Assembly (NCBI GenBank): GCA_020053375.1
Contig: JAGVNG010000017.1
Span: forward strand, 26,780-90,779
From: Nanobdellota archaeon
GTDB lineage: Archaea > Nanobdellota > Nanobdellia > Pacearchaeales > GW2011-AR1
Direction: 5' to 3'
DNA length: 64,000 bases
Shown here: positions 2,273 through 64,000 of the stretch, piece after piece
Numbering within the stretch: the stretch's first letter is position 1
Layout of the letters: every line of letters begins with the position of its first letter
Notes under the pieces: model-generated
Database searches by the model: none
Told to the model about the DNA's origin: nothing
What the model saw: only the letters and a program-made list of their open reading frames with translations
Translations under genes and position numbers: made by a program

Positions 2273-5200
2273 ATGGTTAAGGAAAATAGGGAAAATTTCC
2301 CAACTCATTCTCCTATAATCTTAAAAAGTTATGATGCTCGAAGACATATTGCTGTTCAAGAGGCATACTCTTTGTTAAATATCCAACAGGATTCTAATTT
2401 ATCGCCCCAGAAGCTTAAAAACGCTGCTGAGGAAGGCACAATACAAATTTATGAGTTTAATGGAGAACAATACTTTGATAGACTAGACGTAGGAAGAGTT
2501 TACCATCAAACTCCAAAAACAAGCGATGGATTAACCATAGATAGATATTTTTCGAAGCCGGATGAAAATCCCTTCGAAAGTGTTGGAAAATATGAAAAAA
2601 GAAATCTAAAAATTGCAAAAACTGACGGAACAGTGGTCTTTGAGATGAAAGATGCAGAGTTTCCAGAATCCTGGAGAGAGGATTCTTTAAGTATTATAGC
2701 CCAAAAATACTTTTTTAAGCCTGATAAGGCAGAATGGAAGGAAAAATTAAAACAAAGGATAGGTAGGGAGCATGAATTTTCACCTGTTCATTTGATTAAT
2801 CGTGTTACTAATTTTATTGCTGACGCTGGACAGAATCTGGGATATTTTGCAACGGAAGAAGATAAGAGGGCTTTTGCTGATGAGTTAAAATGGCTACAGA
2901 TTAATCAGAGGTTTGCATTTAATTCTCCGGTACAATTTAATGCAGGAATTTTCAATGAATATAAAATTTCAGGGAGCCAATCATTGGGATACTGGAGAAA
3001 TCCTAAAACTGGAGAAGTGCAAAAAAATGAGGCTGGAGAATTTGTAAATCCTCAGTGTCATGCTTGTTTCATTAAGGGTCCAAATGATGATTTGGAAAGT
3101 ATTTTAGAACATGTAAAAGATGAGGGAGCGGTATTTTCATTGGGTTCTGGTATAGGTCAGGAAATAGGAGTTCTAAGGGCAGAGGGAGAACTTCTTTCTG
3201 GCGGAGGGAAGGCATCTGGATCTATGAGCTTTATGAAGGGATATGATTTTTGGGCTGGAGTAATAAAGTCTGGAGGAAAAAGCAGAAGAGCTGCAAGGAT
3301 GACTACTATGAGATATCATCACCCAGATATTATGAAATTTATAAGAAGTAAAGTAAGAGAGGAAAAGAAGGCAAAGGTTTTAGTGGAGAATGGTTATGAA
3401 GGAGGAATGGACGGCGAAGCAATTACTACTGTTGCTTTCCAGAATACAAATATCTCTGTCAGATTGGATGACGACTTCTTTAAAAAATTAAAAGAGGGGG
3501 GAGATGTTGAGCTATTTTATGTTAAATCTGGAAAAGTAGCTGGAAAGGTTTCAGCAGAAAGATTACTCAAAGAATCTGCATTTGGTTCATGGAGAGTTGG
3601 TGATCCCAACATCCAATATGAATCTTCAATTCAGGGGATGCACACTTCTTCAAATTCGGGGAATATCAACTCCAGCAATCCATGCTCAGAATATATGTTT
3701 TTGGATGACACCTCTTGTAATCTATTATCGCATAACCTTGGTAAATATGCTGACGAAAAGGGAAAATTTGATATTGAAGGATTCAGAAAGGGGGTTTATG
3801 TTTCATCAATTGCTTCAGATATTCTTAACGACAGTGCGTCTTATCCAATAAAAAGTATTGCAACAATTAGCCCTGAATTTAGAACAATAGGAGTGGGTTA
3901 TGCAAATCTTGGAGGATTGTTAATGAGAAAAGGAATCGCATATGACTCTGAAAGAGGAAGGGCATTGGCTGCTGCAATTACCTCCTTAATGACTGGAACG
4001 GTTTATGAGGCTTCTGCAGATATGGCTGAAAAATTAGGCACATTTACCCACTTTGAATTTAACAAAAAACCTGCAACTGAGGTTATGAAAAAACATGAAA
4101 AAAACCTTGAAAAAATTCTTTGGCAAGATGTAGACATTCTTGGTTTAAAGGAGGCAGCATATAATTCATGGGAAAAAGTTAATAGAAGAATAAGTGAGGT
4201 TGGAATTAGAAATGCTCAGGCAACTGTATTGGCACCAACAGGAACAATAGCCTATTATATGGGTTGTCAAGATTCTACAGGGGTTGAACCATCACCTTCC
4301 TTAAAGATATTTAAAAATTTAGCTGGAGGTGGTTCAATAGAAGTTGTGAATGAGGAAGTTTCAAATGCTCTTAACAATCTTGGATATTCTGAGCAGCAAA
4401 GAAAAGAAATTATGGAGTTTGTTGATAAAAATGGGGTTGTTGTAGGCGCCCCACAAATGCAATCAAGTCATTATAAAATATTTGATACTGCTTTTGGAAA
4501 TGTCAGAGGGGAAGGGACTATTCCTTTTGAAGGGCATATAAGAATGCTTGGAGCAACGCAACCCTTTATTTCAGGAGCAATTTCAAAAACAAATAATCTT
4601 CCAGAAAGAGCAACTGTCAAAGAAATTTATGATGGTTATATTCTTGGGCATGAATTGGGGCTGAAAGCATTAGCAGTTTTTAGGAATAACAGCAAGATAA
4701 CGAGTGCATTGACTTTTGGAGATAAAAGTTTGGTAAAGCTTAAGAGAGGAGAAAAAGATGATTTGATAACCGAAAGAGGAGCATTTGAAAAAGAAGTTAG
4801 GATAGGAGGTTCTTCTATTCATATGATTGTAAGTGAATATAAGGATGGAAGACCTGGACAAATTGCTTTCTTATCCCATAAATCTGGATCAACTCTTAAA
4901 GCATTATTGGAAACACAAGGGATTTTAGCATCAAAGGCTCTTAAACGAGGTGTTCATTTAAGAGATATAATTGGGGCATGGGAAAGTCAATCTTTTGAAC
5001 CAGGAGGTTTTGTTCAGGGAGATAATTATATAAAAAAGGCTGGCTCACCTTTGGATTATGCTGCAAAAGTATTGAAATTGCATTATCTCGGTGATTTAGA
5101 TGCTGCAGAAAAGAGAGAAGAGGTTAATATAGAAGAATTGCAGGGATTCAAGAATGGAGCGTTTTTACATTATGCAAGAGAAGGAATTGATGATTGGGAT

Positions 5201-26669: not shown

Positions 26670-26845
26670 ATCCTCCCCTATGCTTCCCCTTTTATAAATC
26701 TTACTATCTGTTATATCTTAATAGTGACAACCTTTTGCTAATAACCATAAACACTATCCCAATAATCCTTAAATATCCAAATTTAATGTATATTTTATGC
26801 TTAAACTAGAATGGGGGTATTTCGTAGAATCATTTTATAAATAAA

Positions 26846-43675: not shown

Positions 43676-43750
43676 AGCAGCGTGGAGGAGCCTGGAGTCC
43701 TCACCGGGCCCATAACCCGGGGATCGGTAGTTCAAATCTACCCGCTGCTA
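43676..43750 (+). tRNA. Initiator tRNA-Met (anticodon CAU)
   Basis: AGCAGCG acceptor with A1:U72, anticodon stem with three consecutive G:C pairs (CCGGG-CCCATAA-CCCGG), GGTAG-TTCAAAT-CTACC T-arm: archaeal initiator features. Confidence 0.8.
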
Positions 43751-43841
43751 CTTTTATTTTTGGCTAAAAATCAAACATTTTTTAAATTGCTTCTGACTTA
43801 ATATTACATAAAAAGAGGTTTTGTTAACTGATTAAATTAAA

Positions 43842-56170: not shown

Positions 56171-56271
56171 GCGGGTGTGCCGGAGTGGTCAAACGGACAG
56201 CCCTTAAGAGCTAGAGAGCTAAGTGAGGCTGTGGCTTAGTGCCTGCGAAGGTTCGAACCCTTCCATCCGCA
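56171..56271 (+). tRNA. tRNA-Leu (anticodon UAA) with ~17-nt intron after the anticodon loop
   Basis: GCGGGTG acceptor, 3-bp D-stem CCG/CGG, CAGCC-CTTAAGA then a ~17-nt insert before the matching GGCTG strand, long variable arm, GAAGG-TTCGAAC-CCTTC T-arm, CATCCGC-A 3' end. Confidence 0.6.
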
Positions 56272-58718: not shown

Positions 58719-58840
58719 CTTAAAGTCTATATACTTATAAGTCCTATTTTATAGACTATATAGTCCTATATTATAGACTTTAAATAACTTTCGTTCTTAA
58801 GCTTGCTCAAAAAATCTGATTTTTCATAAGTGGGATATGG

Positions 58841-58959: not shown

Positions 58960-60723
58960 ATGAAACATGGCAGGCTGATATTAGGCGTATTTATGTTATT
59001 CTTTTTATTAGCCAGTATAAATGCAGCAGTTGATACAGTTATAATTCAATATAATCACCAAAATTATGATTATGCTGTCATCAATAGAACGTATGATTTG
59101 TTTGTGGGGGGAACTGGTTTGCAGAATATAACTAGTTCTCAATTAACATTAATTAGTAACGATGGGAGCATAGCTCAGTACACGTTTGCTCCGGGAAATG
59201 TTGCCGGAATAAGAACTTTTAATGATGGAATTAATAGTTTTAATGTGAATGTTTTAAGCGAAGCTGATGAACTTGCTGATTCTATTGGAAGCGTTGCTAT
59301 TGAGATTACTGATCATTCTTCATCTGTCAAGATAAATAATTTAAATTTGAGTCACAGAATAATAAGAGTAATAAATCTAAGTAAAATTTCCGAATTAAAA
59401 AGCATCAGCGGCAATTTAGACTTGAGCAATATCCTGAAAGGTTTAGATTTTAATCTGGATTTTACCAATGGCTCAAGGTATCCCGCCTATAATTCACTAT
59501 CCATTGATGGAGGTTCCAGCGCTGGAACAGTGATAAATGCGGTATTAACATTTAATGATATTGACTGCAACGGTTTTATCTGCAATTCCAATGATATAAA
59601 TGCTAATCCTGAAAAATTGAATGAAGTCATAGACAAATATGATGCAAATGCGGAGTATATGGCAAATGCAACCGCGATAAAACAGGGGAATGATTTTTCA
59701 TTCTATACAGATGAAGGCTACTCTGATTTAAATGGAACTAACTTGGAAAATGCGCAGGAGATAATCAATGAGAAAATTAAATTCATTGACCCGGATGAGG
59801 TTATTGACGTCCTGCTTCCAATAAAAGATTTCTCAGAATTTAAGCAATTTGTTGATTTTGACATCAGTGTTGATTTTGACAATTTAACAATGGAAGACGG
59901 CACTTATGCCTTGAAAGTTTTATATGAAGACAAATACGGGAATGAGGGAGAAATGCCATTTACAGTTATACTGGACATTACCAATACAATCTCCTCTGAA
60001 CTGGAAGTTAATGGGACAGTAACATTTGCAAATGTTGTGAGCAGCCAAACAACATTGCAAAGAGTTGAAAATCTGCCTGCAGGCATCGCTCTAACGACCA
60101 CATCATTTGGAAACAGCAAGCCTTCCACTTTCATTAGCATTCCCTCAAATGTCGACGCATTGAATTATATCCAGATAGATTCAAGTAATCCAAGCGCAAC
60201 AAGCAGCGGGGCATTTGATTTATATTTCAAAATATTAAAGACTTCAATTCCTTCAAGCGATAAGAACGATGTCAGGCTGTATGTTCAGGAAGGAAATTCA
60301 TGGACCCAACTTCCAACTACCTTAATCAATGAAACACCAACAGAGTATGAGTATAAAGCAGTAATACCTCATTTCAGCAATTTCTTGATAGGTGTTCTTC
60401 AGCCAAGTAGCGGGGGAGGAGGCGGGAGTTCAAGCACAATTTATGAATTTGGAAAAAATGTTAATAATAATCAAACTAATAATACTGCTTCTAATCCAAT
60501 TAATCTTGGGGGCACTCCTCCAGAAGCAGCACCACCAGGATTTTTTGCAACAATAACAGGAGCAATAATCGGAGCATTGGGAACAGGAGGAACAATATTT
60601 GTGGTTGTATTTATTGTTGGCATTGTTGGGGCAATGATTATTCTTAGGGTTGGAAGAAAAACAAATAAAAAAGGGAAGGACAAAAAATTAAATGATAGGG
60701 GTGATAAAGTTGATGAACTATGA
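58960..60723 (+). CDS. Large secreted protein with C-terminal PGF-containing membrane anchor
   Basis: Signal peptide; C-terminal ...APPGFFATITGAIIGALGTGGTIFVVVFIVGIVGAMIILRVGRKTNKK. Confidence 0.55.
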   Translation: MKHGRLILGVFMLFFLLASINAAVDTVIIQYNHQNYDYAVINRTYDLFVGGTGLQNITSSQLTLISNDGSIAQYTFAPGNVAGIRTFNDGINSFNVNVLSEADELADSIGSVAIEITDHSSSVKINNLNLSHRIIRVINLSKISELKSISGNLDLSNILKGLDFNLDFTNGSRYPAYNSLSIDGGSSAGTVINAVLTFNDIDCNGFICNSNDINANPEKLNEVIDKYDANAEYMANATAIKQGNDFSFYTDEGYSDLNGTNLENAQEIINEKIKFIDPDEVIDVLLPIKDFSEFKQFVDFDISVDFDNLTMEDGTYALKVLYEDKYGNEGEMPFTVILDITNTISSELEVNGTVTFANVVSSQTTLQRVENLPAGIALTTTSFGNSKPSTFISIPSNVDALNYIQIDSSNPSATSSGAFDLYFKILKTSIPSSDKNDVRLYVQEGNSWTQLPTTLINETPTEYEYKAVIPHFSNFLIGVLQPSSGGGGGSSSTIYEFGKNVNNNQTNNTASNPINLGGTPPEAAPPGFFATITGAIIGALGTGGTIFVVVFIVGIVGAMIILRVGRKTNKKGKDKKLNDRGDKVDEL

Positions 60724-61949
60724 AAGCCCTCGTTTATCTTATAATTTTTTTGCTGCTCATTTCTACGGTTAGTTCTAAGCATATCTCTCTTCCATACAAA
60801 CAAACTTTAAACAAAGCAAATTTGCTTGAAACTGCAAATGTTAATTTTGAAATTAAAGATTCTAGTGGAAATCCCTTGAAAAATACTCTTATAATAATTC
60901 AGGGAATTTCAAATACTGATTTCAACCAAAATTTACTAACCGACATTAATGGCAAAACCTCTATTGCCTTAAATAAAAATGAAATTTTTGCATATGCAAT
61001 ATACAAATTAGCCTATGAAGAAAAGACAGGGAATTTCTTCACAAATTCAGACAAAAATATCCAGATAACATTAAACAAAGTTCCAAAAGATAAATGGTAT
61101 TTTTATTACGAGAATAATGGGGAAATTGAGTTAAAATTTAAAAGTCTTGATTCGGATACAAATTATTATTCAGGGGATTCTGTCAATGAGGTGCTTGATA
61201 TAAAGAATGTTGCTGGGAAGAATATAGATTTGGTCAAAGAAAAAACTTCCATTGAAACAGTAGATAGTCTAACATTAAAAAGATTGAGATGGTGGGGAGA
61301 CTTAAGACCACAAAATGTTTTAGTAGATTTAACCTTAAAAAAAGACGGATGGCTGAAAGCAACAATTCAGAATGATGCTCTGGAAGTTTGTGCCGGCAAT
61401 GCAATCGGAACATATAAAGGACAAGCTTTTGATGTTTCTGGCAGCGAATTTATATGCAAGGATGATAAAGGAAGTAACATCATTCCAGATTGGATATTAA
61501 AGAACAATTATAAATTCAAATTAGGAGTTGCATATAAGATAGATGGCAACGAAAAGAATTTGGATTTGTTAACGCAGGACTTCTTTATAGACAATGTAGA
61601 ATGGAAACCTGAAATTAGCTCACATCCAATAAAAAATATATTTGCAGATAAACAATGGCTCTATAATATAACGCCAAAATATCCTAATAATTTTGTATAT
61701 TATAAACTGGAAAAAGCGCCGAATAGAATGAGCATAGATAACAAGGGGGGAACATTAACCTGGAGCCCTGTTAAATTTGGCTACTATGATGTTATTGTAA
61801 GAGCATATTATCCATATTTTGATAATGATGATACTAATATTACTTATACTGACCAAAAATTTACCTTGAGTGTATATAACGAAGAGGGTTGTATGCCAAA
61901 ACCACGGAATAAACCACGGAATAAATATTCAGAGGCAATTTGTTTTTAA
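60720..61949 (+). CDS. Secreted hypothetical protein
   Basis: N-terminal signal peptide; ATGA overlap with previous ORF. Confidence 0.5.
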   Translation: MKALVYLIIFLLLISTVSSKHISLPYKQTLNKANLLETANVNFEIKDSSGNPLKNTLIIIQGISNTDFNQNLLTDINGKTSIALNKNEIFAYAIYKLAYEEKTGNFFTNSDKNIQITLNKVPKDKWYFYYENNGEIELKFKSLDSDTNYYSGDSVNEVLDIKNVAGKNIDLVKEKTSIETVDSLTLKRLRWWGDLRPQNVLVDLTLKKDGWLKATIQNDALEVCAGNAIGTYKGQAFDVSGSEFICKDDKGSNIIPDWILKNNYKFKLGVAYKIDGNEKNLDLLTQDFFIDNVEWKPEISSHPIKNIFADKQWLYNITPKYPNNFVYYKLEKAPNRMSIDNKGGTLTWSPVKFGYYDVIVRAYYPYFDNDDTNITYTDQKFTLSVYNEEGCMPKPRNKPRNKYSEAICF

Positions 61950-61950
61950 A

Positions 61951-63015
61951 ATGAAGCTTAAATATCTATTGCCTTTTTTATTTTTGTTTAATACTCAAGA
62001 TATTCGGGCACAATTTAAAGCGGAATCCAATTTACAAGAACTAGATGTAAAAAGCAAATATGTTGATGTTACAGCAAGAGACACTTTTGGATTAAAAGAT
62101 GGATATAACCTAAAAGGAATAATAAAATTAAAGTATGCTAATAATTCTGTTTACTTAAATAGAAATGGATTACTTAATCATTCTTACGGCATTAATATTG
62201 GTTTAGACCTTGCAGAAGGTTATTATAATAATTCTCAACAAAATATTAAAACTGAAAATTCAAGTTCCCAAGATTCTCAGATAGGACAAATAAATACTAA
62301 AACAACTTTATTGAATGAAAATTATACAAATGATTTTGGGATTAAATTTAATTATAACAATTACTTTGTTAGTTATGAAGATGCAAAGAATAGGAATAAA
62401 GTTGATGGGGAGACATTAGTAGAAATTAATGATGAAAAAGATTTAATAAAATATCAATTTAATTTCAATAATTCAAGCCAAATTTATGGACTTGGTTTTG
62501 AATATGGATTTTTTAAGTTTATACAAAACAGGCAGGATGAAAATAAATTTAATAATTATCTTGCAGGAGTCGGTTATTCCGGCCTGAATGTCTATTACGG
62601 GGAAGAGATCGCCGGATTTTTCAATTTTAATGCATTTGATAAGGTTGATTTTAATTTAACCTATGATAAAAATTTTAAGTTAAATATCTCAACATCTGAT
62701 TATTCCAAATTAGCCCAAAAAGATTTTGAAAGAACATTGGAAAATAAGCTCAGATTAGCCCCGAGATTTTATGACTCTGGTCTGGAAACATCAAGAAGCT
62801 ACTTGGAAGACATGTTTTTCACAGATGATTTTAATTTTTCCATAGATAAGAAAAGCATAACAGCCAATCTCAATTTAGGCTACATTTTATTTCATTACTT
62901 AGAAGATAACAAAAATTTTAGATACAGCAAGAAAATAGGTCTTAAATATAAATTTGCTTTGGTAACATATGATTTTAACCAAAAAGAAGCAAAGTTAGGA
63001 GTATTTTTTAATTAA
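61951..63015 (+). CDS. Secreted Asn/Tyr/Phe-rich protein with beta-barrel-like C-terminus
   Basis: Signal peptide MKLKYLLPFLFLF; alternating hydrophobic pattern and terminal ...LGVFFN; ATG 1 nt after previous stop. Confidence 0.45.
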   Translation: MKLKYLLPFLFLFNTQDIRAQFKAESNLQELDVKSKYVDVTARDTFGLKDGYNLKGIIKLKYANNSVYLNRNGLLNHSYGINIGLDLAEGYYNNSQQNIKTENSSSQDSQIGQINTKTTLLNENYTNDFGIKFNYNNYFVSYEDAKNRNKVDGETLVEINDEKDLIKYQFNFNNSSQIYGLGFEYGFFKFIQNRQDENKFNNYLAGVGYSGLNVYYGEEIAGFFNFNAFDKVDFNLTYDKNFKLNISTSDYSKLAQKDFERTLENKLRLAPRFYDSGLETSRSYLEDMFFTDDFNFSIDKKSITANLNLGYILFHYLEDNKNFRYSKKIGLKYKFALVTYDFNQKEAKLGVFFN

Positions 63016-63057
63016 ACTCCGTATGCAGAAACCCTTAAAAACTCACGTTTTATCCTT

Positions 63058-63324
63058 AATGTCGTAGACTAGGTTGGCAGGTTAGCCCTCTGCCGCTTGC
63101 AAACGGGCTTTATGGCAGACTGCAAGGAGTGGCGTGATTAGCGCGTCGATAAGTCTCTATTCCGACGTTGACGTTTTGTCCGCTTTGATCTTGCATATGC
63201 GAAACGGGTCAGGCCTTGATCGGAGCAGCCCTAAACATTTGCGTGGATGCTTAACGGGTAGCAAAGCCGAGAGAGAACAGAGGAAGCTTCTTCGACAATC
63301 TATGAGCAAAACTCCGAGTCTACA
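63058..63324 (+). ncRNA. Signal recognition particle RNA (7S-like), tentative
   Basis: ~50% GC island in a 33% GC genome; GGGTCAGGCC...GGAGCAGCCCTAAAC resembles the SRP RNA helix-8 motif; 5' GTAGACTAGG can pair with 3' CCGAGTCTAC. Confidence 0.45.
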
Positions 63325-63460
63325 AAGAATGCCGAAGCATCGTCATTCTGGAGGAAATCGCCAAAGCGTTGTCAATTTGGAGCAAAACTCCGAGTCTACA
63401 CTTTAAAATATACTTCTAAACATATCAATATTTATATAATTAAAAATAATTAAAAAATAA

Positions 63461-63811
63461 ATGACAAAGAAAAGGCCATTTGCAGACATGTATAAATTTG
63501 AATCAGAATTCTTAGAAGGAAGAGAGGGTAATAGGGTTAGAATTTATATTAATAATTCCTGGCCCCGAAGCCCTGCTGAATTTTCTGAGGGCGCAAAAAA
63601 ACTTGAAATAAGAGAGGGAAAAGTGTTAGAGGCTCTTGACTGGAAAACTCCAAGTTTTTTTCCAAGATGCGGGGGAGGACCTTCTTTAGTGATGCATGTT
63701 GATAAAAAAGGCTGCGGAAATAGCAGAAACATCCGACTGGAACAAGCTGATTACACAGGAAATTATTTATATTATAAAATAGGGCGCATTGAAATAATTT
63801 CATCCAAGTAA
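63461..63811 (+). CDS. Hypothetical protein
   Basis: 116-aa ORF. Confidence 0.35.
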   Translation: MTKKRPFADMYKFESEFLEGREGNRVRIYINNSWPRSPAEFSEGAKKLEIREGKVLEALDWKTPSFFPRCGGGPSLVMHVDKKGCGNSRNIRLEQADYTGNYLYYKIGRIEIISSK

Positions 63812-63872: not shown

Positions 63873-64000
63873 ATGATAAAGAGGTTGAATAAGAGAGGAC
63901 AATTTTATCTTATCGCAGCAATAATCATTGCGGCCATATTAATGGGATTCATAACCATGTCAAATTATTCTACGAAGTGGGAATCAATAAGCGTGCAGGA
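63873..64000 (+). CDS. Archaeal type IV pilin-like protein, 5' part (runs off window)
   Basis: MIKRLNKRGQFYLIAAIIIAAILMGF = class III signal peptide (KRGQ followed by a hydrophobic stretch). Confidence 0.45.
   Translation, partial: MIKRLNKRGQFYLIAAIIIAAILMGFITMSNYSTKWESISVQ

Follow-up and report, generated by a model that had tools for sequence, protein, structure and literature searches.

An SRP RNA gene without helix 6 in an AT-rich DPANN archaeon and a private 76-bp insertion repeating its 3' end

We analysed a 64,000-nucleotide stretch of contig JAGVNG010000017.1 from a Nanobdellota archaeon of the Pacearchaeales (assembly GCA_020053375.1, forward-strand positions 26,780 to 90,779; hereafter the window, with position 1 as its first letter), and focused on a region near its end, 63058-63400, in which a 21-nt segment occurs twice. 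An earlier note, made from the letters alone, had read this region as a gene resembling that for signal recognition particle (SRP) RNA, with its 3'-terminal segment duplicated. We found that the locus is a genuine SRP RNA gene belonging to a DPANN archaeon with an AT-rich genome, of the Pacearchaeota/Woesearchaeota type, and that, judged by comparison with its relatives, the gene ends at the first copy of the segment. The 76 bp that follow, including the second copy, form an insertion that is private to the lineage of the window as far as searched, being absent from about 50 relatives. We interpret the insertion as the scar of a DNA-level rearrangement lying outside the conserved RNA, and assign this interpretation a probability of roughly 0.5.

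The SRP RNA gene and its relatives

The gene, its presumed promoter, its main structural elements and an open reading frame (ORF) that overlaps it are as follows:

63034..63043, forward strand: TATA-like box CCTTAAAAAC, the presumed promoter, about 25 nt upstream of the SRP RNA 5' end
63064..63324, forward strand: SRP (7S) RNA gene in a form without helix 6, about 261 nt, identified by the RF01857 match, homology to relatives and covariation
63064..63070, forward strand: GTAGACT, the 5' strand of the terminal helix, pairing with 63317-63323
63206..63236, forward strand: core of helix 8 with the SRP54-binding motif, GGGTCAGGCC TTGATC GGAGCAGCCC, on the helix 8 positions of RF01857 at high posterior probability
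63134..63406, forward strand: 90-aa ORF, judged spurious, that runs across the SRP RNA into the tail behind it

Rfam was searched in two passes, one over the whole window at gathering thresholds and one over the region alone with permissive filters. At gathering thresholds, tRNAs were the sole matches in the window. The archaeal SRP RNA family (RF01857, Archaea_SRP) aligned to 63062-63325 over model positions 1-317, which is its full length, with a score of 68.3 bits and an E value of 4.1e-15, and did not reach its gathering score of 96.5 bits. The SRP RNAs of five relatives, about 263 nt long, were likewise below this threshold at 68-85 bits, and because this held for all five of those tested, the shortfall is a property of the clade and not of the locus in the window. 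The low score is explained by the missing helix 6, since about 40 model positions before helix 8 are replaced by 1 nt. The covariance-model search that the earlier note had proposed as a check therefore gave an end-to-end match (E 4e-15) that stays under the curated threshold, and the competing explanation by a protein-coding gene was not supported.

To collect homologues, the 18-nt helix 8 sequence CAGGCCTTGATCGGAGCA was scanned against one genome per species, which yielded 120 SRP or 4.5S RNA loci (these and other fetched loci are cited below by L numbers). More than half of them, 67 of the 120, lie in AT-rich genomes of Pacearchaeota, Woesearchaeota or Nanoarchaeota, and about 50 of these 67 align to the SRP RNA of the window at 72-87% identity. 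In an alignment of 28 SRP RNA sequences, compensatory double changes were present in 41 of the 81 consensus base pairs. The terminal helix has six invariant pairs and a seventh that covaries among the 28 relatives (U-A in 12, C-G in 5, U-G in 6), and the long helix 5 also covaries. The helix 8 strands GGGUCAGGCC...GGAGCAGCCC sit on the helix 8 positions of RF01857 at high posterior probability, and the flanking pairs 147-150/169-172 and 155-156/163-164 are covarying or invariant. The helix-8-like motif GGGTCAGGCC...GGAGCAGCCCTAAAC noticed earlier is indeed present, at 63206-63236, and its apical loop is UUGAUC, not GGAA. In the Alu domain, the hairpins of helices 3 and 4 both align to RF01857; the UGUNR position reads UGCAA and is partly gapped there, and the loop-loop pairing AGCCC/GGGCU covaries, changing from C-G to U-A in 6 of the 28 sequences. 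The consensus fold of the 28 relatives contained no separate hairpin corresponding to helix 6, the SRP19-binding hairpin with a GNAR tetraloop. These results support the SRP RNA reading by a full-length family match, by some 50 DPANN homologues and by strong covariation, and we regard the assignment as secure even with the score below the gathering threshold and helix 6 missing.

Base composition and the upstream sequence agree with this assignment. The GC content is 0.42-0.57 over about 63050-63400, compared with 0.08-0.32 in the flanks and 35% in the genome, so that the island of about 50% GC described in the earlier note is real. An A/T box (CTTAAAAA, CTTTAAA or CTTATAAA) stands at an equal distance upstream of GTAGAC in 17 of the 17 relatives displayed, which suggests that the TATA-like box at 63034-63043 acts as the promoter. 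Secondary-structure folding, also proposed as a check, was uninformative for the whole region: its minimum free energy fold had a z score of -0.4 and did not recover the canonical SRP fold.

Compared with archaeal SRP RNA as described by RF01857, the RNA of the window is colinear over the full length, has the terminal helix, a covarying helix 5, helix 8 with the loops CAGG and AGCA, Alu hairpins with a covarying loop-loop pairing and a presumed TATA-type promoter, and occurs once per locus. It differs in its length of about 261 nt against about 300-317 nt, in the absence of about 40 helix 6 positions, in a helix 8 apex of CC-UUGAUC-GG where the family has a GGAA tetraloop, in UGCAA for UGUNR and in a 76-nt 3' tail without counterpart in the family. 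According to a 2010 review, helix 6 coexists with SRP19, and the GGAA loop is standard, in archaea (PMC2905702). The RNA of the window belongs functionally and evolutionarily with archaeal SRP RNA, as a reduced variant. The same substitutions, UUGAUC for GGAA at the helix 8 apex and UGCAA for UGUNR, are found in the SRP RNAs of the clade, of which helix-6-less examples of about 263 nt lie at 4084-4346 in L024, 139-402 in L052, 5130-5393 in L064, 1071-1332 (minus strand) in L082 and 3864-4127 (minus strand) in L119.

Since the SRP RNAs of the clade score below 96.5 bits, standard annotation misses them and places spurious ORFs across them, of which the database protein P0002 is an example. The 90-aa ORF listed above is a case of the same kind and had rightly been suspected to be spurious. 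It matched no Pfam or PHROG family, and its sole database relative was P0002, a 73-aa ORF lying across the SRP RNA of a relative. Moreover, P0002 matches residues 1-50 of the 90-aa ORF only, where the RNA is conserved, and not the tail.

The duplicated 21-mer and the 76-bp insertion

The 3' end of the gene and the tail behind it contain the following elements:

63304..63324, forward strand: copy 1 of the 21-mer, at which the native SRP RNA terminates; its context AATCTATG plus the 21-mer is homologous to L121 and L024
63325..63353, forward strand: hairpin unit A, AAGAATGCCGAAGCATCGTCATTCTGGAG, the first period-29 unit, folding as.((((((.(((....))).))))))....
63354..63382, forward strand: hairpin unit B, GAAATCGCCAAAGCGTTGTCAATTTGGAG, the second period-29 unit, whose last 3 nt overlap copy 2
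63375..63395, forward strand: 8-bp hairpin AUUUGGAG-CAAAA-CUCCGAGU, in which the 3' arm of unit B pairs with the first half of copy 2
63380..63400, forward strand: copy 2 of the 21-mer, an exact repeat, with the AT-rich flank CTTTAAAATA on its 3' side

As the earlier note had reported, the segment GAGCAAAACTCCGAGTCTACA occurs exactly at 63304-63324 and again at 63380-63400, 76 nt from start to start. When up to 3 mismatches were allowed, these remained the 2 matches in the 64 kb, and 100 dinucleotide-preserving shuffles gave 0. Copy 1 is the one shared with relatives, being identical to L121 at 21 of 21 positions and to L024 at 20 of 21, and the homology of the closest relatives to the window stops at 63324, the last base of copy 1. 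In all relatives, the SRP RNA terminates in a single ...GTCTAC(A), directly followed by AT-rich DNA. The comparison is closest with L121, from Hainich groundwater, the one metagenome contig in which the exact 21-mer was found. Over the shared last 137 nt of the gene, its identity to the window is 93%, and the 21-mer, asked about by the earlier note in terms of one or two copies in relatives, is present there once, followed by unrelated sequence.

The flanks place the insertion. After the single copy, L024 and L076 continue with CTTTT, and L111, L040, L064 and L121 with CT... In the window, copy 2 is followed by CTTTAAAA, which is like the flank of the relatives, and copy 1 by AAGAAT, which is not. 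Copy 1 is therefore native, copy 2 adjoins the old flank, and 63325-63400 is a 76-bp insertion; on these sequence comparisons, the SRP RNA gene ends at copy 1. The GC content of the insertion is 0.46 and that of the next 60 nt is 0.08.

The second copy could in principle serve the RNA as well as the first. GTAGACT at 63064-63070 is exactly complementary to AGTCTAC in copy 1 (63317-63323) and in copy 2 (63393-63399), so that the pairing of the 5' end with either copy, as proposed in the earlier note, holds, with the correction that GTAGACTAGG lies at 63064-63073 and not at 63063-63072. The predicted energy was -102.4 kcal/mol with the 5' end closed on copy 1 and -105.4 kcal/mol on copy 2, and in folding predictions the ensemble preference between the two flips with the assumed 3' end.

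We then looked for the same event in relatives. Among the 67 low-GC loci, there was no exact repeat of at least 11 nt involving the SRP 3' end, and no second copy of a relative's own SRP 3' end was found within 8 kb. A crude count had hinted at an enrichment of 3'-end-like copies in relatives; a shuffle-based test of the trailers of 46 relatives showed none, with 2 at p<0.05 against 2.3 expected.

The 55-nt spacer between the copies is itself a diverged tandem repeat of period 29 (Tandem Repeats Finder) and includes the segments GAATGCCGAAGCATCGTCATTC and GCCAAAGCGTTGTCAATTTGGAGC. Unit A folds into a hairpin of nine pairs (-8.2 kcal/mol, z -2.2) in which AGAATG at 63326-63331 pairs with CATTCT at 63344-63349; this is the GAATG..CATTC hairpin that the earlier note had placed between the copies. 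Units A and B are identical at 20 of 29 positions in the hairpin register and at 22 of 29 in the register of Tandem Repeats Finder, a similarity equalled by 0 of 5000 shuffles. Set against unit A, unit B breaks one pair and keeps three others through compensatory double changes, two from G-C to A-U and one from A-U to U-A; at least three compensatory changes would arise by random substitution with P ~0.0015 (Monte Carlo). The homologous fold of unit B is weak alone (+0.4 kcal/mol). The 8-bp hairpin at copy 2, on the other hand, is stable (-8.1 kcal/mol, z -3.1), compared with only -1.0 kcal/mol for the equivalent context of copy 1 (CUAUGAG). The fold of the whole tail is not exceptional (z -1.5), and no Rfam family matches the tail at 63325-63400.

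Several observations bear on the relation of the tail to the gene. Copy 2 opens with the final GAG of unit B, so that the segment duplicated from the gene may measure 18 nt, with the other 3 nt being microhomology. A weak similarity links unit A to the native SRP 3' segment (p = 0.003), and the 20 nt before copy 2 showed no significant similarity to the native sequence (p = 0.36). Derivation of the spacer from the 55 nt upstream of copy 1, by duplication and divergence, was also considered and rejected, since their alignment scored the same as the mean of the shuffles. Units A and B have diverged by 24-31%, compared with 0 differences at 21 positions between the 21-mers, which under an equal neutral age has a probability of about 0.0004-0.003 (0.69^21 to 0.76^21). 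The duplication of the 21-mer is thus younger than that of the units, or its identity has been maintained.

No further copies of the spacer were found in the 64-kb window, in 150 fetched loci or, by blastn, in phage and plasmid collections, and both spacer halves had 0 matches in IMG/VR. A proxy search with the 90-aa ORF in 5.8 billion predicted proteins gave no trace of it, and a covariance model built from units A and B detected no further copy there when applied to the window. Matches of the units in L117 (E 4e-4 and 0.06) and in L031 (inside a tRNA gene) were set aside as borderline or due to chance. In L117, positions 2434-2492 on the minus strand hold two units of about 30 nt in tandem, with 22/29 identity to unit B and a C.A mismatch at the same position; they lie just upstream of a DEAD-box helicase gene and could reflect chance plus local duplication. 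Other identities for the tail were dropped. A C/D-box small RNA (sRNA) was rejected as the tail has no C or D boxes, and a substitute for helix 6 on sequence grounds. A transposable element, including miniature inverted-repeat and repetitive extragenic palindromic types, was rejected as the window has no other copy by sequence or covariance model. A duplication of 21 bp also far exceeds the usual target-site duplications.

An insertion at the equivalent position was seen in L082, where, relative to L107 and L086, 51 nt are inserted exactly at the SRP RNA terminus, bounded by GGTCTACA and GGATCTACA, a short terminal duplication. Its similarity to the tail in the window was not significant (p = 0.13), and the parallel is a structural one.

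The insertion also bears on transcription. An oligo-T run is the usual archaeal termination signal. A run of at least 4 T lies within 40 nt of the SRP RNA end in 87% of 46 relatives, at a median of 19 nt. In the window, no such run is present for 257 nt after copy 1 or for 181 nt after copy 2, and a scan for sigma-70 promoters and intrinsic terminators returned nothing relevant beside the SRP RNA gene. We infer that the insertion displaced the oligo-T terminator that normally follows within about 20 nt, and transcripts would then probably read through both copies.

The trailers of some relatives have features of their own. Those of L054, L117 and L111 contain CTCGGAAG (or CGGAAG), complementary to the RNA's own 3' strand CTTCCGAG. 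This pairing would form a hairpin that includes the 3' end of the RNA and is followed by a T-run in L054 and L111, and further downstream in L117; the hairpin resembles an intrinsic terminator and would be a competitor of the terminal helix. In L107, L086 and L082, a conserved element (ACACTGAAGGGCAATTTCTAAACACCTTGATGAAAT...) lies about 15-200 nt downstream of the SRP RNA gene, with UGAUGA and CUGA motifs reminiscent of C/D-box sRNAs, and the copy in L107 is tandemly duplicated with a 77-nt period and a 59-nt exact repeat.

Possible origins of the insertion

As to how the insertion arose, our tentative preference, at somewhat less than even odds, is an attachment (att)-type recombination at the 3' end of the gene with later loss of the interior DNA; slippage or template switching at the locus itself comes close to it in likelihood. 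In the att-type scenario, DNA carrying a core similar to the SRP 3' end would have recombined at the terminus of the gene in a Campbell-like manner, and the interior of the integrated DNA would have been lost afterwards, leaving copy 1 as an attL-like and copy 2 as an attR-like sequence. The SRP RNA would be transcribed from the TATA-like box at about 63034-63043, and with the oligo-T terminator pushed away, polymerases would probably continue past both copies. Pairing of the 5' end with copy 1 would give the canonical 261-nt RNA after 3' trimming, and pairing with copy 2 a 337-nt isoform with an extra arm. Copy 1 would be favoured co-transcriptionally, and also because copy 2 is predicted to be partly tied up in its own 8-bp hairpin.

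The att-type event is preferred because the repeat matches exactly within sharp borders and its end coincides with the last base of the gene, with the nearest relative representing an empty site, and because a perfect core beside older-looking units is expected if identity is required for exchange. It is also preferred because the interval downstream of the gene is a turnover hot spot (described below) and SRP RNA has a precedent as an att site in bacteria. Phage phiEf11 integrates in the bacterial ffs gene (4.5S RNA) via a 27-nt core, which was described as novel in 2025 (PMC12540744). Like the att sites in tRNA, transfer-messenger RNA (tmRNA) and ffs genes, the locus in the window has an exact direct repeat that contains the 3' terminus and leaves the gene intact (21 bp, against 27 bp for phiEf11), sharp identity borders, an empty site in the closest relative and hypervariable downstream DNA. 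Unlike them, it has 55 bp between the repeats, and no integrase, element, attP or recurrence was found. The earlier suggestion of an RNA-gene 3' end duplicated by integration fits the att-like geometry and the empty site of L121, and does not fit the spacing or the lack of any trace of an integrase, an element or recurrence. As the tests for an integrase-bearing element and for attP gave nothing, the repeat pair is not classed as an att site. In the literature searched, no report of SRP RNA serving as a target of integration in archaea was found.

Several results weigh against the scar interpretation and its att-type version. With 55 bp between the repeats, an integrated element would need to have undergone near-total deletion with both junctions left intact. 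No integrase, transposase, recombinase or other mobile-element domain was detected in the ten neighbouring proteins within the last 12 kb of the window. An attP-like copy of the 21-mer was not found in IMG/VR or in the phage and plasmid collections, in which DPANN mobile elements are poorly sampled; 23 IMG/VR matches to the degenerate pattern AGCAAANNTCNGNGTCTAC lacked SRP-like flanks and were attributed to chance. Integration targeted to the SRP RNA gene was not seen in any of the roughly 50 relatives. Selection on a hairpin, which a pure scar would not predict, is hinted at by the three compensatory changes and by a GC content of the tail like that of the RNA, and the weak similarity of unit A to the native 3' segment also fits a local serial duplication. 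Taken together, the searches neither support nor exclude integration, and the origin of the 3' duplication is uncertain.

The local alternative is that replication errors, by serial slippage or template switching, led from the native segment to unit A and then to unit B plus the 21-mer, with later divergence and with neither foreign DNA nor function; the identity of the 21-mers would be due to short-tract gene conversion or to chance recency. We consider it a possible account, at odds well below even. Where template switching has occurred, hairpin-forming sequence is typically found beside the duplication, and correction of quasi-palindromes can yield paired 'compensatory' changes without selection. 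Such micro-duplications resemble the locus in their close short direct repeats, period-29 repeat, hairpin units with paired changes and GAG microhomology, and the tail is internally a tandem repeat whose unit A aligns weakly with the native segment and whose unit B ends in GGAG, overlapping the start of the 21-mer; the lack of mobile-element evidence is also as expected. Nevertheless, the duplication is not head to tail: the 55 nt before copy 1 are no more like the spacer than shuffles are, the 20 nt upstream of copy 2 are unlike native sequence, and no template for the spacer is detectable in the window. The absence of differences between the 21-mers beside diverged units also needs an extra assumption. 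An unlikely explanation is that the tail is functional, either as a lineage-specific 3' extension with a second strand for the terminal helix or as 3' hairpins that replace the oligo-T terminator and protect or direct 3' processing. The alternative 3' ends or terminator structure suggested in the earlier note may apply, given that the normal oligo-T run is missing. It would account for a GC content of 0.46, as in an RNA gene and in contrast to 0.08-0.29 in intergenic DNA, for the compensatory changes between the hairpin units, for the perfect 21-mer beside diverged units, for the similar predicted energies of the 5' end with either copy and for the stable hairpin that copy 2 forms with its own upstream context; the absence of the usual terminator, too, makes transcription of the tail probable. 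A tail found in one genome and lacking in L121, 93% identical, and about 50 others argues against long-term selection, however, and the instability of the unit B hairpin, the unexceptional z scores of the tail and of the whole region and the lack of an Rfam match to the tail also weigh against this explanation.

That the duplication was made during metagenome assembly, at an RNA gene shared by co-occurring populations, appears improbable. In its favour, contigs of the nearest relatives (L146, L147, L148 and L150 at their 3' ends and L121 at its 5' end) all break inside the conserved helix 8 core, which marks the gene as a weak point in assembly, at least 2 SRP RNA variants coexist in the Hainich H51 samples, the tail is in one contig only, and the repeat of 21 nt and spacer of 55 nt equal common de Bruijn k-mer sizes, the SPAdes defaults being 21, 33 and 55. 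The path from repeat through spacer to repeat, on the other side, needs reads over the two junctions, 63324/63325 and 63379/63380, so that such a sequence must be present somewhere; a tandem repeat that has diverged with its structure preserved, and that passes without a break into copy 2, would not result from chimeric joining; and a 21-nt repeat is below the final k of usual assemblies and should not confuse them. We give hardly any credence to the remaining explanations, a coding 90-aa protein at 63134-63406 or a bulge-helix-bulge intron of 76 nt. The frame is open, yet the substitutions among relatives follow RNA pairing. Removing any 76 nt starting within copy 1 would restore the canonical SRP RNA, as an intron should; cuts at equivalent points of the direct repeats, however, need a self-complementary 4-mer, the 21-mer contains none, and the 4-mers upstream of the copies (CUAU/UAUG against UUUG/UUGG) are not complementary. 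The intron was rejected because the two 3-nt bulges and the 4-bp helix cannot be drawn at the splice sites. In Thermoproteus, SRP RNA is reportedly permuted or circularised, with ends rearranged at the DNA level and RNA processing deciding the functional molecule; unlike that system, with its bulge-helix-bulge motifs and permuted order, the gene in the window is colinear and no such motif can be drawn.

The rearrangement scar remains our favoured reading. A further-reaching proposal, which we regard as doubtful, is that mobile DNA in DPANN archaea uses the SRP RNA gene's 3' terminus as an attachment or recombination site, with an attL/attR-like pair and the hairpin repeats as arm-type sites, or that the tail is an extension with two interchangeable closing helices. 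Either would tie in with the hypervariable, ORFan-filled interval before the pilin-like gene downstream.

Genomic surroundings and wider meaning

Two features lie between the tail and the end of the window:

63461..63811, forward strand: ORF116, an ORFan specific to the lineage, placed between the SRP RNA and the conserved gene downstream
63874..64000 (window end), forward strand: first part of a pilin-like gene, MIKRLNKRGQFYLIAAIII..., conserved in the clade as the gene downstream of the SRP RNA

By blastn and tblastx, 63836-64000 matches the DNA downstream of the SRP RNA in L121, L064, L117, L115, L100, L052, L024 and others. In our own reading of the translation, the gene at 63874 appears to encode a pilin-like N-terminal (class III) signal peptide, KRGQFYL... 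The distance from the SRP RNA to this gene is about 15-40 nt in L064, L117, L115 and L100 and 0.25-1.5 kb in L121, L070, L052, L031 and L024. The interval is unalignable even between close relatives, is hypervariable and holds lineage-specific small ORFs, and it is a hot spot of turnover. In the window it contains the 76-nt insert and ORF116. The sole match of ORF116 among 5.8 billion proteins was itself, and it matched no Pfam or PHROG family; foreign origin was rejected for it, its GC content of 0.373 being ordinary for the genome. A TATA-like box at about 63429-63438 suggests that its transcript is leaderless. Upstream, the genes beside the SRP RNA of the window are common only to its nearest relatives, and in the near relatives reached through an upstream protein (P0004-P0006), the contigs end inside the SRP core or without the gene and thus give no 3' flank.

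Elsewhere in the window, we noted a 101-nt tRNA match at 56171-56271 (Rfam, 45.5 bits) that is not in the ARAGORN output and probably contains an intron, and a tRNA-Met called by ARAGORN at 43676-43751 that Rfam does not list at its gathering threshold. Intergenic DNA at 58728-58780, upstream of the gene at 58960, holds a 22-nt palindromic tandem repeat, TATAGACTTATAAGTCCTATAT, in 2.4 copies. At 61899-61925, where a 409-aa gene overlaps a long GTG-started frame at 61870, there is a perfect 12-nt tandem repeat, AAACCACGGAAT; judging from the database protein P0003 (354 aa), that downstream gene has its true start near 61951.

From its sequence, then, the gene appears ordinary and its tail a private oddity of uncertain origin. 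Should the insertion be nothing more than a private indel, its importance would not extend further. A transcript in which two identical 3' strands vie for a single 5' strand would make the locus a test case for how archaeal SRP RNA 3' ends are defined where no oligo-T run is near. For annotation, the analysis indicates that a large DPANN clade has helix-6-less SRP RNA genes that standard pipelines miss and overlay with spurious ORFs. If the insertion is a true att scar, SRP RNA would join tRNA and tmRNA genes as an archaeal integration target, the sole SRP RNA precedent that we found being the bacterial one of 2025, and the locus would help to track down mobile elements, almost unknown so far, in DPANN archaea.

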